Assembly (NCBI GenBank): GCA_965226885.1
Contig: CBDDEL010000016.1
Location: forward strand, 736,001-800,000
Length of the DNA: 64,000 bases
Reading direction: 5' to 3'
Source of the DNA: Opitutales bacterium
GTDB lineage: Bacteria; Verrucomicrobiota; Verrucomicrobiia; Opitutales; UBA2987
The position numbers are program-made. This document shows positions 15,001 to 21,000 of this stretch, in pieces. The stretch's first letter is position 1. Each line of letters opens with the position of its first letter.

Positions 15001-18000
15001 AAGCCTGCTGGGAGCAAAGCGATTACAGCGAAAAACAGGTCCAACAGATCCTCGCCCGGATGGAGCGCATGAGCGAGCAAATCCCGGTGGTCATCAAACA
15101 GGCGCACGAGCGGATCATTGGCGGCCGCCAGGTGAAAAACGCAGAGAAAGTCTTGAGTGTTTACGAACTCGATGGGCAGGTGATTGTGCGAGGTAAAGCG
15201 GGCCAAGAGGTCGAGTTCGGCAACACCCTGTTTTTGGGAGAAAGCGTTGAAGGGTACCTGCTGGACTGGAAACTCTACGGCAGCCGAACTCCAAGCGAAA
15301 ATGAACAAATGCAAGAGAGTTTGCAAAGACAGAACCGCTTCAACCTGGAAGAACCCATAGCGGCCATGTGCGCGGACCGGGGATTTGCCTCCCAGCGGGC
15401 CCGCCGGCAGTTAGCCCAGGAGGGAATCTACGACGCGCTCTGTCCACGCGATCCGAAGCAGTTGAAAAAACGGATGGAGGAACCACTGTTCAGACAATTG
15501 CAAAAGCGCCGGGCCAGCACCGAAGGGCGGATCGGGGTATTGAAGAATCGCTGGCAGGCCGGGCGGTTGCGCAGCAAAGGCTTTGCCAACCGCTCGATCA
15601 GCGTAGCCTGGTCGGTACTCTCGCACAACCTATGGAAAGTAGCCAAGATGCTGGCCCAGCAAGACGAACTAAAAACCAAAGCGGCGGCCTAGAGAGAGCG
15701 GAAAAGCAAGGACAATACTTTTTCACAGCCTTACTGTCGGCTCATACAAAGAAAACCAGGCAACCGGACCCCAAAACCAGTATCCTAACGTCATAGGAGA
15801 GCAAAGTTGATACTCTCCCAAATGCAAATACCTCTAAAATGAGCGCCTATCAAAAGCCCTCGCAAAATCACCCTTTTGGGACAGCCTCTAAATAATGATA
15901 AAGGGTTGACGGCCTTGCGGCAGGGTCTTTTTTAGGTCAATTTCAAACAGAGTCGATGAGCTATAAACTATACATACCAGGTCCGGTGGAAGTTTCGGCG
16001 AAAACCTACGAGGCCATGGCCACGCCGATTTTCGGCCACCGCGCACCCGAATTTGCTTCGCTTTACAACCGTATCCAGCCGGGCCTGCAAACATTGTTCG
16101 GAACTTGCGACCCGGTTTACCTATTCACCAGCAGTTCCTGGGGGGCTATGGAGGCGGCCGTACGCAATGTCGTCGGCAAAAAGGTTTTAAACTGCATGTG
16201 TGGGGCATTCTCCGACAAATGGCATGATGTCAGCCGGGCCTGCGGAAAGGAGGCCGGCGCCCTGCGTTTTCCATGGGGCCGTTCCGTCGATCCGTCAGCC
16301 GTGGCCGCAGAACTGGCCACCGGTCAATACGATGCCATAACCATCGTTCATAATGAAACCTCGACCGGCCTGATGAACCCGCTGGCGGAATTGATGGAGG
16401 CTGTGCGGGATTTTCCCGAGGTAATCTCGATTGTCGATGCCGTCAGCTCTCTTGCCGCGGTTCCCATCCCAAAGGACGAATGGGGCATCGACATTTTGCT
16501 GACCGGAACACAGAAGGCTCTTGCCATCCCCCCCGGCCTGGCTCTTTGCTCGGTTTCAAAAAAGGCATTGGATCGAGCCGCCCAAATTCCCGGCCGAGGA
16601 TCTTATTTCGATTTTTTGAATTTTCACCAAAATCACCTCAAGAGCATGACGCCGACCACTCCTAGTATCACTCTTATTCACGCCCTTGAATCGAAATTGA
16701 AGGAAATTTTTGAAGAGGGACTGGAAAACCGCTACGCTCGCCACGCCAAACTCAACGCCTTGGTGCACGATTGGGTAGCGCGCAATGGTTTCGCCCTCTT
16801 CCCGAAAAAGGAATTCGCTTCCAAATCGCTCACTTGCGTCGAAAATACCCGTCAAATCGACGTTCCAAAATTCATCGATCTTCTCAAGGAACGGCATAAT
16901 TACGTCATTGATGGCGGGTATGGAAAAATCAAGGGCCGGACCTTCCGCATTTCCAATATGGGAAATGAAACCGAAAAAACAATCGGACAATTGCTGGACA
17001 ATCTCGACAACATTCTTACCGCATTGTAATTCTTAAATTTTGAATGTCCTGAATCCTTTTTATCTTTCATAAAAATGAGTAAAACTCTAATTATAGCGGA
17101 GAAACCTAGTGTGACTCGTGATTTAACCCGCGCCCTCGGAAATTTTCGCAAGGTGGATGGTTGGTACGAAAACGATTCCTATATCATCAACTCGGCCATT
17201 GGGCACCTGGTCGAGCTGCCCATGCCCGAGGATATCGACAAAACCTTCAAATTCTGGCGCCTGGAATCGCTCCCCATTATTCCAGATACTTTTAAACTTA
17301 AGCCCATCGAGAAAACAAAATCGAAATTCAGCGAATTGAAAAAACTCATGCGCCGCGAGGATGTCAATGAGGTCATCAACGCCTGCGACGCTGGGCGCGA
17401 GGGCGAGCTCATCTTTACCTACCTCTATGAACTTGGCAAATGCAAAAAGCCGGTCAAGCGACTTTGGCTTAGTTCGATGACGCGCACGGCCATTCGGGAA
17501 GCTTTCGATAATCTGCGCAATGGCGAGGATATGCAAAACCTGCAAGATGCCGCCCGCTGCCGCTCGGAGGCGGACTGGCTGATCGGCATCAACGGCACCA
17601 GGGCGATTACCACCCGCATGTATGGCAGTAAATCCCGCGGCAATGTGGCTTCCGTCGGCCGGGTGCAAACTCCCACCCTCGCTATTGTTTTGGAGAGAGA
17701 AAGGGCAATCAACGCCTTCCAAAGAAGACCCTACTGGAAAATTGTCGGAAATTTCGAGGTCAAGGAAGGAAATTACGAAGGCTTGTATCAAAAAGATGAT
17801 TTTAAAAGATCAGACGACGCCGCGGACAAACCGGATCGTATTTGGGACCGGGATAGAGCCGCCCACATTATTGAAAGTCTCGAAAACGGCGGCCCCGCCT
17901 ATGTCAGCGATACTAAAAAGAGGACGCGCCAGATTGCCCCGCGTCTATATGATCTTACAACCCTGCAACGGGAAGCCAATAACCGCTTCGGGTATTCCGC

Positions 18001-21000
18001 CCGGCGCACCCTGAACCTGGCCCAGGCTTTGTATGAAAGACACAAGCGTATAACCTATCCGAGGACGGATTCAAGGGCGCTGCCGGAAGATTATCCAACT
18101 TTGTGTAAAAGATCCCTGGAAGCCTTCGATGGCGAAATGGGAGAACACGCGCAGAAAGTTCTCTCCCAAAACTGGGTCAAACCCAACCGGCGCATCTTTA
18201 ATAATTCCCAGGTCAGCGACCACTTCGCCATCATCCCGACCGGTGACAATGAAAGCCAACTGAATGCGGATGAAGGCAAAATTTACGACATGATTGCCCG
18301 GCGTTTTATCGCCGTCTTTTATCCTCCCGCCGAATATGACGTCACAACCAGAAGAAGTGAAATAAAGGACTATAATTTTAAGACCGAGGGCAAGGTACTG
18401 ATCAAAAAGGGCTGGCTCGAAGTCTATGGAAAAAATAAAAATAGCGGGATCGACCTGCCTTCCCTCTCCGCCGGGGACGGTTCTCCTGCGCAGGCCCATC
18501 TCCGCACGGTAGAGCTAAATGAGGAAGAAACCAAACCGCCGCCCCGCTACACCGAGGCAACACTATTATCAGCCATGGAGGGCGCGGGCAAGTTTGTCGA
18601 TGACGAGCTATTGGCCGATGCCTTGAAGGAAAAAGGCCTGGGCACACCTGCCACACGCGCCTCCATCATTGAACAGTTGGTCAATCAGAAATATATTGAG
18701 CGGGATAAGCGCGACCTCATCCCCACTGCCAAAGCGGAGAACCTGATCGATTTTCTCAGCGCCCTCAAAGCAGGTTCCCTGACCAGCCCGTCCATGACCG
18801 GCGATTGGGAATTTAAATTGAGGCAAATCGAAAATGGGAAATTAACCCGTAAGGAATTCATGAATGGAATCGCCGAAATGACGGGAAATATTGTGGGCCG
18901 GGCAAAATCCTTTCAGGAATCCGATGCTGGGGCGCGAGAAACCGCTATTATCTCCCCCACCGACAACAAACCCATCCTGGAAACGCTTCGCACTTTCAAA
19001 TCGCAGGACGAGGCCCTCGTTATCTACAAAACGATTGGTGGACGCAAGTTTAATGAAGCAGAGATCAAAACCCTAATCGAAGAAAAACAAATTGGTCCAG
19101 TGGATGGGTTTCGATCCAAGGCCGGAAAACCCTTTACCGCCCGGCTCATTCTGAGCCCCGAAAACAAAGTCAAATTTGTATTCGATAATAACGACAACGG
19201 CGAACCCGAAGAACCCATCGACCTGGCAAGCCTAACCCACATCGGCACCTGTCCCAAGGATGGGGGCAAAGTGCTGGCCGCTCCCAGAGCCTTTGCCTGC
19301 GAGCATACCTTCGGCGACAAACGATCCTGCGATTTCAGGATTTTCCGCACTATGCTGGGGAAGGAATTGCCCGAGCAAGAAATCAAGAATCTACTCCAAA
19401 ACGGAAAAACCGGCCTCATCGAAAGATTCCTTTCCAAACGAACCAAAAAGCATTTTTCCGCTTTTCTAACGGTCAACAAGAGTGGTCGTATCGGTTTTGA
19501 ATTTCTCCCGCGCGACAATTCGAAAAAGAAAAAAAGCAAAGCCAAAAGCAAGAAGGCGAAAACCTGACATTTTTCGGGATCGATTTTAACTTAAATTTTC
19601 CAAGGAAAAAAAACTGCCATGCCCATCGCCACACCAAAACAATTTGCCCAAATGCTGGATGCCGCCCAACAGGCCGATTACGCCTACCCGGCCGTCAATT
19701 GCAGCTCGATTATTACCATCAACGCCGCCCTCAAAGGTTTTGCCGATTGCAAATCCGACGGGCTCATCCAATTTTCCACCGGGGCGGGGCAATTTGCCTC
19801 CGGCCTAAACAACAATAATCCCACTTACGGCTGCATTCTTTTGGCCGAAGCAGCCCATCGTCTGGCCGAACAATACGACGTTGTCATCGCATTAAACACG
19901 GACCATTGCCAACCCGAAAAAGCGGAAAGCTTTTTGCAACCCCTGATCGAGGAAACGGCCAAACGCCGGGCTCGAGGCGAAAGCAATCTGTTTCAAAACC
20001 ACATGCTCGACGCCTCCGCCCTTCCTCTCGAGGAGAACATGGCCTTGAGCAAGGAGTATCTCAAGCTTTGCGCCGAACAGGAGATCATTCTCGAAGTCGA
20101 GGCCGGAGTTGTCGGGGGCGAGGAGGACGGCGCAGCGGGCAGCGAGGACACCCCTTCGGAAAAAATGTACACCACACCGGAGGATATGGTCGCCGTTCAT
20201 GAAGCGCTCCACGGGCTGGGCCGTTTTACCTTTGCAGCCACTTTCGGCAATGTGCATGGTCATTACAAACCGGGCGCTGTCCAACTGCGGCCCGAAATTC
20301 TCCAACAAGGCCAGGAAGCCGTCATCTCACGTTATGGGCCCGAGGCTGAATTCGATTTGGTTTTCCACGGCGGTTCAGGCAGCGAGTTATCGCAAATCCG
20401 GGAAACGCTTGCCTACGGTGTCATCAAAATGAACATCGATACCGACACTCAGTATGCTTTCACTCGGCCCATCGCTGATCACATGTTGAAAAACTACGAC
20501 GGCGTCATGATGATTGACGGAGATATCGGCACCAAAAAATCCTACGATACCCGCTCCTACCTGAAAAAAGCGGAGGCCGCCATGGCCGCCAGGGTCAGTC
20601 GTGGCTGTGACGACCTGCGATCGACCGGCCATACTTTGTTCGGCCAAATTTAATCGCTTCGTTTATTTTCAGGACTTCAGGGCAGCCAGGGGTATTTCCT
20701 GAAATCAGGTTCGCGCTTTTCCAGAAAGGCGCGGTGGCCCTCGCTCCCCTCCTCCGACATATAATAGAGAAGAGTGGCGTTTCCGGCCAGCTCCTGCAAC
20801 CCGGCTTGACCGTCCACATCGGCATTAAAAGCCGACTTCATACAGCGTATGGCTAAGGGGCTTTTTTCCAAAATCTCTTTGGCCCATTGGACTCCTTCGC
20901 TCTCCAGATCCTCGACCGGCACAACTTTGTTGACCAATCCCATTTCGAGCGCTTCCCGTGCGTTGTAGCGGCGGCACAGGTACCAGATTTCCCGCGCTTT

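Follow-up and report, generated by a model that had tools for sequence, protein, structure and literature searches.

Can a Topo III-type enzyme stand in for Topo I in a bacterium that has no other type IA topoisomerase? Passages in reviews and surveys published between 2009 and 2024 say, or take for granted, that an omega-type Topo I is universal in bacteria and treat Topo III as an optional extra (PMC2647321, PMC7140829, PMC9369019, PMC10969213). The window analysed here, a whole stretch of 64,000 nucleotides, comes from a genome of the class Verrucomicrobiia (G000; 5.48 Mb, 17 contigs, 96.33% complete) and encodes an 830-residue type IA topoisomerase with the following features.

17075..19567, + strand: long Topo III-type (NF006032-type) type IA topoisomerase gene, 830 aa, ATG start (ORF, Pfam, NCBIfam)
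17084..17476, + strand: Toprim domain, aa 4-134 (Pfam; alignment)
17531..18865, + strand: Topoisom_bac core, aa 153-597 (Pfam)
18056..18058, + strand: catalytic Tyr codon, Y328 in ITYPRTD (alignment with E. coli Topo III and relatives)
18581..18634, + strand: insertion, about aa 503-520, at the position of the E. coli Topo III decatenation loop (alignment)
18935..19180, + strand: C-terminal module 1, aa 621-702, a beta-ribbon that has lost its zinc Cys plus a Toprim_Crpt helix/sheet unit
19235..19504, + strand: C-terminal module 2, aa 721-810, a degenerate zinc ribbon (3 Cys) plus Toprim_Crpt
19517..19564, + strand: Lys-rich C-terminal tail (sequence)

The enzyme and the topoisomerase set of its genome

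Pfam analysis of the 830-residue protein reports a Toprim domain (residues 4-134), a Topoisom_bac core (412 bits, residues 153-597) and, as the genome-wide survey's note had claimed, two C-terminal Toprim_Crpt stretches. The protein lies barely over the cut-off of the NCBIfam model NF006032 'DNA topoisomerase III' (1072.3 bits, cut-off 1058), over that of TIGR01056 topB (585.6 bits, cut-off 515.75) and below that of TIGR01051 topA_bact (237.2 bits, cut-off 456.4). Among PDB sequences, its core aligns end to end with E. coli Topo III, as the same note had it (residues 5-611 on 3-607, E 5e-86), while E. coli Topo I returns an E-value of 4e-35. The Topo III signatures are a lysine after the first Toprim glutamate and a proline after the catalytic tyrosine (PMC10969213). 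Both are present: the Toprim motif reads AEKPS (E9-K10), and the signature proline follows Y328, a residue that is the same in all 55 class enzymes aligned. AEKPS and TYPRTD recur in every class row of the alignment shown, whereas the TopA rows shown read VESPA and TYMRTD. The Toprim acidic motif is D-A-G-R-E-G-E in place of DxD. The loop stretch counts 21 residues in this protein and in 38/38 class rows, against 5 in 21/21 TopA rows; the 17-residue insertion, net acidic here, is common to all TopB rows and missing from all TopA rows. In place and length it matches residues 502-519 of E. coli Topo III, the decatenation loop.

Two type IA trees, both quick searches with SH-aLRT support only and built without archaeal, eukaryotic or reverse-gyrase rows, split TopA from TopB with 100% support (branch length 1.24 under LG+G4, 3.38 under a mixture model) and place the class enzyme on the TopB side. 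E. coli TopB clusters with IncP TraE and with Aeromonas and Campylobacter plasmid enzymes (100%), and the class enzyme falls in a clade apart from it (94%, branch 0.75). In this 'long' clade the class enzymes are joined by Desulfobulbales enzymes and a Bordetella plasmid enzyme, and throughout it Gly stands where the Toprim DxD motif has its second Asp. Mobile-type copies that occur as second genes form a different clade (100%). From HMM scores, signature residues and the two trees, the 830-residue enzyme is assigned to the Topo III subfamily. The survey's note had called it an orthologue of TopB, which is too strong because the enzyme sits in the separate 'long' clade: membership of the Topo III subfamily stands, membership of E. 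coli TopB's own clade does not. The enzyme represents a distinct 'long' Topo III clade of the NF006032 type, with zinc-ribbon and Toprim_Crpt modules in its tail.

Within that tail, the best Pfam stretch of Toprim_Crpt in module 2 covers residues 751-810, and 12 of the last 30 residues are K/R. Toprim_Crpt had been described as typical of some Topo I enzymes, a description that has to be dropped: PF13342 occurs in 0/9 TopA proteins scanned, and the Topo I repeat is a separate Pfam family, PF13368, in a passage of PMC9369019. Neither Zn_ribbon_Top1 (PF01396) nor Topo_C_Rpt (PF13368) is found by Pfam in the 830-residue protein. PF01396 is reported in 5 of 55 aligned relatives and, when members were scanned singly, in three of the f19 type (a family of the class described below) and not in two of a sister family. 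The tail is like Topo I tails in layout only, with tandem zinc-ribbon or zinc-ribbon-like modules, a Toprim_Crpt unit after each, and a Lys-rich end.

A Pfam Topoisom_bac search of the genome at E<=1 returns this single gene, which is also the sole match of a six-frame topA_bact search (233.6 bits), in keeping with the survey's statement that topA is absent. One GyrA/ParC homologue and one GyrB homologue lie adjacent on contig 11, and searches for a type IB topoisomerase and for Topo VI-A found none. The gene is the sole type IA gene detected, beside one gyrase and without topo IV, IB or VI; that this single enzyme belongs with Topo III, as first noted, agrees with the Pfam and NCBIfam searches and with both trees. 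The claim that topo IV is missing holds for this genome and not for the class, since a second GyrA/ParC homologue is present in 20/20 f4 and 17/19 f3 genomes (families of the same order) and in many families of the class. The families neighbouring G000 likewise lack topo IV and type IB, and a type IB enzyme occurs in 17 of 151 relatives. The lack of topo IV characterises this family group and does not extend to the whole class. In the window, metabolic genes flank the topoisomerase gene, which has a DDE transposase ORF 1.4 kb upstream of it.

Distribution and locus of TopA and the Topo III-type enzyme

Among 301 Verrucomicrobiia genomes, each at least 90% complete, TopA scores over the cut-off in 27 (f11 6/6, f19 19/28, f46 1/1, f59 1/1), and the scores are bimodal (>=479 or <=248 bits, with nothing between). 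TIGR01056 topB reaches E<=1e-100 in 267/301 genomes and its cut-off in 251/301, and reaches E<=1e-100 in 0/27 of the TopA-bearing genomes. In all, 27 genomes have TopA only, 272 a TopB-like match only, two neither and none both; most have one TopB-like match each. The Topo III-type enzyme and TopA are mutually exclusive in the class, which bears out the complementarity proposed by the survey. The genomes without TopA include 25 single-contig assemblies in which the Topo III-type gene is the only type IA gene, G030 and G039 (about 0.9 Mb each) among them. In a phylum sample of 121 genomes, TopA is found in 79 of the 80 from other classes, which were indeed said to have it, versus 0 of the 41 from the class; the same search recovered TopA in 10/10 bacterial controls. 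Most genomes compared are MAGs.

A position directly downstream of dprA is typical of topA, though not defining. With dprA calls made by BLAST clustering (nine examples confirmed by Pfam), the gene immediately upstream, in the same orientation, is dprA at 18/18 class TopA loci, 7/15 TopA loci of other classes and 22/55 class loci of the Topo III-type gene. No adjacent dprA was found in the window or in the order to which G000 belongs. Family f19 holds both kinds of gene in one order, dprA-[topA or Topo III-type gene]-xer, and its DprA proteins are as similar between topA and Topo III-type genomes (65-80%) as within one kind. The f19 Topo III-type form consists of the core, one Toprim_Crpt and three Topo I-type zinc ribbons, and its tail is colinear with the last ~150 residues of f19 TopA (65-72% identity, against 43-56% with TopA from other families). 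Two genomes of one f19 genus, a case that rests partly on a 4-kb contig, differ in their topoisomerase gene; their dprA genes are 85% alike in nucleotides, and over their final 212 nt the topoisomerase genes are 95% alike. The core has no nucleotide match to the neighbouring TopA. A result beyond the survey is that in f19 topA and the Topo III-type gene alternate between the same neighbours, the latter carrying the zinc-ribbon tail of the resident TopA.

The complementarity of TopA and the long Topo III also reaches beyond the class. G302, of another class, lacks TopA and carries a long Topo III-type enzyme. Of 61 genomes from the order of Desulfofustis, 12 are without TopA, and each of these has an NF006032-type enzyme (11 over the cut-off, one truncated by a contig end). 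That enzyme occurs in 0/47 genomes with a full-scoring TopA; in two Desulfobulbales genomes it is present alongside a short, low-scoring TopA. The survey's worry that the pattern reflects one or two ancient replacements is eased, since f19, G302 and Desulfobulbales make at least three more settings. Among plasmid records, more than 5000 encode TopB-like proteins, 4153 of them conjugative, and the closest of these comes from a Bordetella plasmid, with 44% identity across 98% of its length.

Proposed role and its alternatives

Topo III is a strong decatenase and a weak relaxase, and bacterial Topo I is the enzyme that mainly relaxes negative supercoils, essential in cells with neither topo IV nor Topo III. 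We consider it probable, at about three in four, that the long Topo III is the cell's single housekeeping type IA enzyme and took both the place and the job of topA in an ancestor of most Verrucomicrobiia. The identity of the enzyme, its uniqueness in the genome, its distribution, its exclusion of TopA, the shared locus and the chimeric genes are observations; the course of events would be as follows. The long Topo III would have assumed the function of Topo I, in many cases at the very site of topA behind dprA, with loss of topA afterwards. The enzyme would strip the excess negative supercoils left by gyrase and transcription through the usual type IA single-strand passage, its tail may provide single-strand DNA binding and processivity, and in G000, which lacks topo IV, it would help gyrase to unlink replication intermediates. 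In favour of this role, according to passages of PMC7140829, supercoils induced by transcription are relaxed in vitro by E. coli Topo III, less effectively than by Topo I, and each enzyme is believed to serve as a backup for the other.

Several observations count against a Topo I role, namely the decatenation-loop insertion kept in the core, the weak relaxase activity of E. coli Topo III (a passage of PMC9369019), the Gly at the second DxD position across the clade, a gene that is not beside dprA in G000 and its order, and other relaxing enzymes in some relatives (the second GyrA/ParC; type IB in 17/151). The Bordetella plasmid member and the two Desulfobulbales genomes that also have a short, low-scoring TopA speak against a purely housekeeping family.

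It is unlikely that the enzyme performs Topo III work only (unlinking, recombination intermediates) and that the Topo I job goes unfilled, supercoils being balanced by a low gyrase set-point or, where present, by topo IV or type IB. The Topo III-like core with its loop, the second GyrA/ParC homologue of many class families and the scattered type IB enzymes would fit such an arrangement, and extra topo IV permits E. coli and B. subtilis to live without type IA enzymes, in a passage of PMC7140829. However, topo IV and IB are both missing from G000 and the families next to it, and the strict exclusion of TopA, the shared dprA slot and the chimeras with a TopA tail would be left unexplained. A reading of the gene as a mobile element's accessory Topo III is very improbable: the abundance of TopB-like proteins on plasmids, the 44% identity to the Bordetella enzyme and the upstream transposase ORF point that way, yet the gene is the only one of its type in G000, most class genomes have a single match, metabolic genes flank it, it is retained in almost every class family sampled, and the second-gene mobile-type copies belong to another clade.

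Assembly gaps, or divergence beyond the models, could have hidden a topA, given 96.33% completeness in 17 contigs and two class genomes that show zero type IA genes; this is exceedingly improbable in view of the single Topoisom_bac hit even at E<=1, the 25 single-contig class genomes without TopA, the success of the same search in other classes (79/80) and controls (10/10), and the lack of intermediate scores. A very divergent TopA grown TopB-like, a worry of the survey's note to which occupation of the topA slot in many relatives might lend itself, is scarcely conceivable: both trees place the enzyme on the TopB side of a split with 100% support and a branch of 1.24 or 3.38, it shares the Topo III signature residues and the insertion of all TopB rows, and in f19 the tail alone is TopA-like.

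A broader proposal, to which we give an even chance as a whole, is that the Toprim_Crpt-bearing long Topo III would be a third housekeeping kind of bacterial type IA enzyme, interchangeable with Topo I; that the two would be alternative cassettes at the dprA-topA-xer locus; that they would be swapped by recombination in the flanks and sometimes inside the gene, leaving behind natural chimeras that join a Topo III core to the zinc-ribbon tail of Topo I; and that swaps would have occurred independently in Verrucomicrobiia, a sister-class lineage and Desulfobulbales. Contrary to the textbook view, Topo I is mostly missing from a whole, ecologically widespread class and from part of another phylum. 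This is a natural experiment on whether the difference between the relaxase Topo I and the decatenase Topo III lies in core or tail, a question made directly testable by the f19 chimeras and the alternating locus. If the cassette proposal is true, supercoiling homeostasis against gyrase needs no Topo I-type core, and Topo I-specific function would be carried by the tail. One would not expect inhibitors directed at Topo I to have the same effect on these bacteria, and annotation pipelines or 'universal gene' lists that count on topA will mis-score such genomes as incomplete.

Comparison with known systems

Archaea and eukaryotes relax DNA with other enzymes (type IB, IIA, IIB), and gyrase is missing in most archaea; in G000, unlike there, the Topo III-type enzyme faces gyrase alone. 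The likeness is that their type IA enzyme has a Topo III-type core, with no Topo I-type enzyme, in passages of PMC2647321 and PMC7140829. The Lys-rich end may be analogous to that of actinobacterial TopA, an enzyme of another subfamily with other repeat domains; the lysine repeats of Streptomyces TopA are reported to make the enzyme-DNA complex more stable and the enzyme highly processive, in a passage of PMC5714199.

Within NF006032 (PRK08173), the Bordetella flabilis plasmid enzyme passes the same family cut-off and shares clade and architecture, including two Toprim_Crpt stretches; it lies amid plasmid genes, whereas the G000 gene is chromosomal and alone. Bordetella itself probably has TopA. 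E. coli TopB resembles the 830-residue enzyme in its core from end to end, the Glu-Lys and Tyr-Pro signatures, the loop insertion, the TIGR01056 match and the side of the tree. In contrast, it belongs to a separate clade, has no Pfam domain past the core where the 830-residue enzyme bears a 220-residue tail (two ribbon plus Toprim_Crpt modules and a Lys-rich end), has a basic loop and a Toprim D-P-D instead of an acidic loop and D-A-G, and is an addition to TopA rather than the sole type IA enzyme. From bacterial TopA the 830-residue protein differs in its core (237 bits against a cut-off of 456; AEKPS/TYPRTD for VESPA/TYMRTD; the 17-residue extra loop) and in lacking the Zn_ribbon_Top1 and PF13368 repeats. 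What the long Topo III has in common with TopA is the probable cellular role, the slot downstream of dprA in 22/55 relatives and a tail of tandem zinc-ribbon-type modules, which in f19 is TopA's own.

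A Topo III-type core with a modular tail

The type IA topoisomerase P0001 (830 aa) is encoded in the following setting.

17075-19567, + strand: P0001 gene, encoding 830 aa from an ATG start; Pfam domains Toprim (aa 4-134), Topoisom_bac (aa 153-597, 412 bits) and two Toprim_Crpt (PF13342) stretches
17376-17396, + strand: Toprim acidic motif of P0001 (aa 102-108)
14211-15692, + strand: DDE transposase ORF two genes upstream, 493 aa, with a weak PF01609 match (E 1e-5)
20677-23323, - strand: MenB-like enoyl-CoA hydratase ORF and adjoining MenD-like thiamine-diphosphate enzyme ORF downstream, probably a menaquinone gene pair

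The neighbours are metabolic, with a class-V aminotransferase and a class-II fructose-bisphosphate aldolase besides the MenB-like and MenD-like enzymes. NCBIfam analysis of P0001 reports 1072.3 bits against NF006032, slightly over its cut-off of 1058, and 585.6 bits against the Topo III model TIGR01056 (cut-off 515.75), while the score against the bacterial Topo I model TIGR01051 is well below the cut-off (237.2 vs 456.4). The top match among solved structures is E. coli Topo III (E 5e-86, residues 5-611 on 3-607), followed by E. coli Topo I (E 4e-35). According to a 2024 review (PMC10969213), Topo III is distinguished from bacterial Topo I by two residues, a Lys following the first Glu of the Toprim domain and a Pro following the catalytic Tyr. 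In our alignment, P0001 and its relatives in the class Verrucomicrobiia read AEKPS and TYPRTD, and the TopA rows VESPA and TYMRTD. The stretch holding the decatenation loop of E. coli Topo III comprises 21 residues in P0001 and in 38/38 class rows, as compared with 5 in 21/21 TopA rows; it is acidic in P0001, whereas it is basic in E. coli Topo III. The Toprim acidic motif of P0001 and of all class relatives is N-A-C-D-A-G-R-E-G-E, in which a Gly takes the place of the second Asp in the usual DxD; this Gly is invariant in the 55 P0001-type sequences and recurs in a clade of second-copy TopB-like enzymes and in a Bordetella plasmid enzyme. In contrast, E. coli TopB exhibits D-P-D at this position.

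P0001 was aligned with 54 relatives (55 sequences; locus L039, whose start is unclear, was excluded). Toprim_Crpt is present in all 55, with additional Topo I-type zinc ribbons (PF01396) in five. The genome-wide survey's note had described Toprim_Crpt as typical of some Topo I tails; this was mistaken, since none of the nine TopA proteins scanned carries it, and the cysteine-free Topo I repeat is a distinct family, PF13368, according to a 2022 tail-domain survey (PMC9369019). E. coli TopB shows no tail domain in the Pfam scan. The tail of P0001-type enzymes is made up of two or three modules, each a ribbon (consensus CPxCG...C...C) followed by Toprim_Crpt; it contains 0 to 16 cysteines, few in P0001's order, and in many members terminates in a Lys-rich stretch. 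The AlphaFold2 tail model, which is confident (pLDDT 91.1), displays two like modules, for which Foldseek returned no PDB match at E<=0.001. The best hit of a wide VIA-align search, the E. coli Topo I tail (9gda_F), has a Z of 3.9 and an rmsd of 12 A, under the tool's stated noise level. In the ESM Atlas, most labels on clusters with this architecture are Verrucomicrobiota, Bacillota and Pseudomonadota, and these serve as leads only.

Distribution and phylogeny of the two enzymes

The genome containing the window, G000 (5.48 Mb, 17 contigs, 96.33% complete), has the P0001 gene as its sole Topoisom_bac match (Pfam, E<=1) and as the only gene matched by the topA_bact model (233.6 bits), which bears out the earlier claim of a genome devoid of TopA with a Topo III-type enzyme alone. 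Its remaining Toprim matches belong to other genes, one GyrA/ParC and one GyrB homologue lie adjacent on contig 11, and searches for type IB and Topo VI-A found neither.

Among 301 class genomes, each at least 90% complete, TopA is above cut-off in 27, from families f11 (6/6), f19 (19/28), f46 (1/1) and f59 (1/1). The topA_bact scores are bimodal, at >=479 or <=248 bits; 272 genomes return only a cross-match with the topA model (1e-34 to 1e-73) and two return nothing. The topB model matches 267 genomes at E<=1e-100 and 251 above cut-off, none of the 27 TopA genomes among them, and the two kinds occur together in 0/301, so that the complementarity proposed by the survey holds across the class. 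Besides the TopA genomes, seven lack a strong topB match (G064, G072, G078, G194, G202, G211 and G236). Of these, G064 and G078 nonetheless have the P0001-type enzyme (712 and 829 bits against P0001), their topB-model match being probably split by a large insertion. The G064 enzyme (locus L052, about aa 250-290) and other f19-type enzymes carry an insertion of ~30 residues in a variable loop matching E. coli TopB residues 241-255, which probably accounts for their failure to reach E<=1e-100 with the topB model. Two TopA-type matches each are found in G043 and G190. Of the TopA-less genomes, 25 are assembled as a single contig, including two of ~0.9 Mb. In a phylum sample of 121 genomes, TopA is present in 79/80 of other classes, as the survey had stated, and in 0/41 of Verrucomicrobiia; nine other-class genomes combine TopA with a shorter TopB-like gene.

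Could another topoisomerase account for the loss of TopA? Type IB enzymes occur in only 17/151 class genomes and are absent from G000, and were rejected as a general Topo I substitute. The survey's further claim, that topo IV is missing, is correct for G000 with its one GyrA/ParC homologue and fails for the class, where a second homologue is common (20/20 in f4, 17/19 in f3), while being absent from G000, f2, f5 to f9 and f11. A link between topo IV loss and TopA replacement was likewise rejected, because the TopA families f11 (6/6) and f19 (mostly) have a single homologue too and many TopA-less families have two. The lack of topo IV is therefore local to the group of G000 and unrelated to the TopA question.

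Trees were built from genes excised from the fetched loci, together with E. coli TopA and TopB and six plasmid enzymes. The first comprised 79 rows and 613 core columns (LG+G4; 26 of 105 rows, near-duplicates, dropped by name), and the second 52 chosen rows and 611 columns (LG+C20+F+G4 by PMSF), both with a quick search and SH-aLRT support only. The TopA/TopB split receives 100% in both, with a branch of 3.38 in the second. In the first tree, the seven TopA rows of the class group together (99%) within the phylum's TopA, which looks like vertical retention. The class enzyme group comprises 42 rows (98%), among them the Bordetella plasmid enzyme and the two fragments of the gene of G302, a genome from another class; the TopB-like second copies form a separate group (100%). 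A second-copy TopB-like gene, also from another class (L093, G306:C429:1-3541, ORF 218-3541, + strand, at least 1108 aa and still open where the fetched region ends), is fused C-terminally to a DEAD/Helicase_C helicase, a domain order opposite to that of reverse gyrase. In the second tree, the P0001-type clade (94%, branch 0.75) contains 28 Verrucomicrobia rows, seven Desulfobulbales rows (100% as a group of their own), the Bordetella plasmid enzyme and a contig from a Burkholderiales MAG, whereas E. coli TopB forms a separate clade (100%) with IncP TraE and two further plasmid enzymes. The branching order within the P0001-type clade is without support, and therefore no donor can be named.

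Proposed replacement of TopA at its locus and outside the class

In the classical Bacillus gene order, dprA precedes topA and a xer gene follows a little further on. ORFs on either side of the fetched genes were clustered, nine being checked with Pfam. A dprA gene is the immediate upstream neighbour, in the same orientation, in 18/18 class TopA loci, 7/15 other-class TopA loci and 22/55 class loci of the new enzyme, these 22 stemming from about twenty different families. Six class loci and three other-class TopA loci have an XerC/D-like recombinase downstream, inside the 1.5-kb flank (Pfam on two). No dprA adjoins the topoisomerase gene in the window, in the loci of P0001's own order, or in the 13 Desulfobulbales-type loci among 44 scanned.

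The order containing f19, f46 and f59 has TopA in 25/36 genomes and the new enzyme in 11/36, one kind per genome, with genera mostly uniform and only two mixed (g53 and g98). Both kinds of f19 genome share the order dprA-[topA or new gene]-xer, and DprA is 65-80% identical between the kinds, the same as within the TopA kind (69-80%). The f19 new enzyme consists of the core, one Toprim_Crpt and three PF01396 ribbons; the sister families f36 and f45 have Toprim_Crpt only. Its tail (aa 740-894) is colinear with the final ~150 aa of f19 TopA, at 65-72% identity vs 43-56% to TopA of other families, and is therefore that of the resident TopA. Two genomes placed in g53, G022 with the new enzyme and G041 with TopA, share 85.1% identity over 1468 nt of dprA and 95.3% over the final 212 nt of their topoisomerase genes; between the cores of these genes there is no nucleotide match. 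Judged from these sequences, which come from MAGs (the G041 contig being only 4 kb), we read the pattern as a recombinational replacement in which one of the joints falls within the gene.

Outside the class, G302 (1.7 Mb, listed as 100% complete) is devoid of TopA, and its only type IA gene is of the P0001 type and nests in the class clade of the first tree. This gene (L092, G302:C18) is split after the catalytic tyrosine region into two overlapping frames, 2184-3473 (-) and 913-2247 (-), of 429 and 444 aa, with a single frame switch between nt 2364 and 2298; this may reflect an error of sequencing, a gene that is truly split or a site of recoding. Among named genomes, a scan reported full-length relatives (identity 45-49%) in Desulfofustis glycolicus DSM 9705, in Desulfopila and in two MAGs, one of Desulfobacterales and one of Burkholderiales; Fibrobacterota relatives are 34-35% identical. 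TopA is above cut-off in 0/5 outside genomes with such relatives, a count including the doubtful Burkholderiales MAG, and in 0/4 leaving out the unpublished genome G385. The Burkholderiales copy (L124, G384), on a 3.9-kb contig, nests among Pedosphaera-like Verrucomicrobia; it may have been transferred recently or result from misbinning, and was set aside as an independent case of replacement. Among records labelled "MAG: Akkermansia muciniphila", L130 and L137 have enzymes with 52-53% identity to P0001, a level equal to that of Opitutaceae records, and L141 gives a partial match at 42%; these organism labels may be unreliable.

The order of Desulfofustis shows the either-or pattern again. Of its 61 genomes, 49 have TopA and 13 an NF006032-type enzyme above cut-off; the 12 TopA-less genomes all carry the latter (11 above cut-off, the other truncated where its contig ends). 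Two genomes (G399:C1 and G412:C1/C2) possess both this enzyme and an unusually short TopA, with ORFs of 676-692 aa that score 515-523 bits, and may represent an intermediate state of replacement, and none of the other 47 TopA genomes has the NF006032-type enzyme.

Proposed role of the long Topo III

On evolutionary grounds, from which its activity is inferred, we argue that the long Topo III does the work of Topo I in other bacteria, because the strict either-or pattern is repeated in unrelated lineages, the two genes share a chromosomal slot, and chimeras keep TopA's tail. Searches of open-access text found no report of TopA-less bacteria and no usable paper on Akkermansia essentiality, and "Verrucomicrobia" does not appear in the main text of the 2022 tail-domain survey (PMC9369019). 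We rate the enzyme subfamily as known, and the clade, its architecture and its putative role as unrecognised. In E. coli, multicopy topB suppresses topA null mutants. According to PMC7140829, E. coli Topo III can relax supercoils induced by transcription in vitro, though not as well as Topo I, and each enzyme is thought to be a backup for the other.
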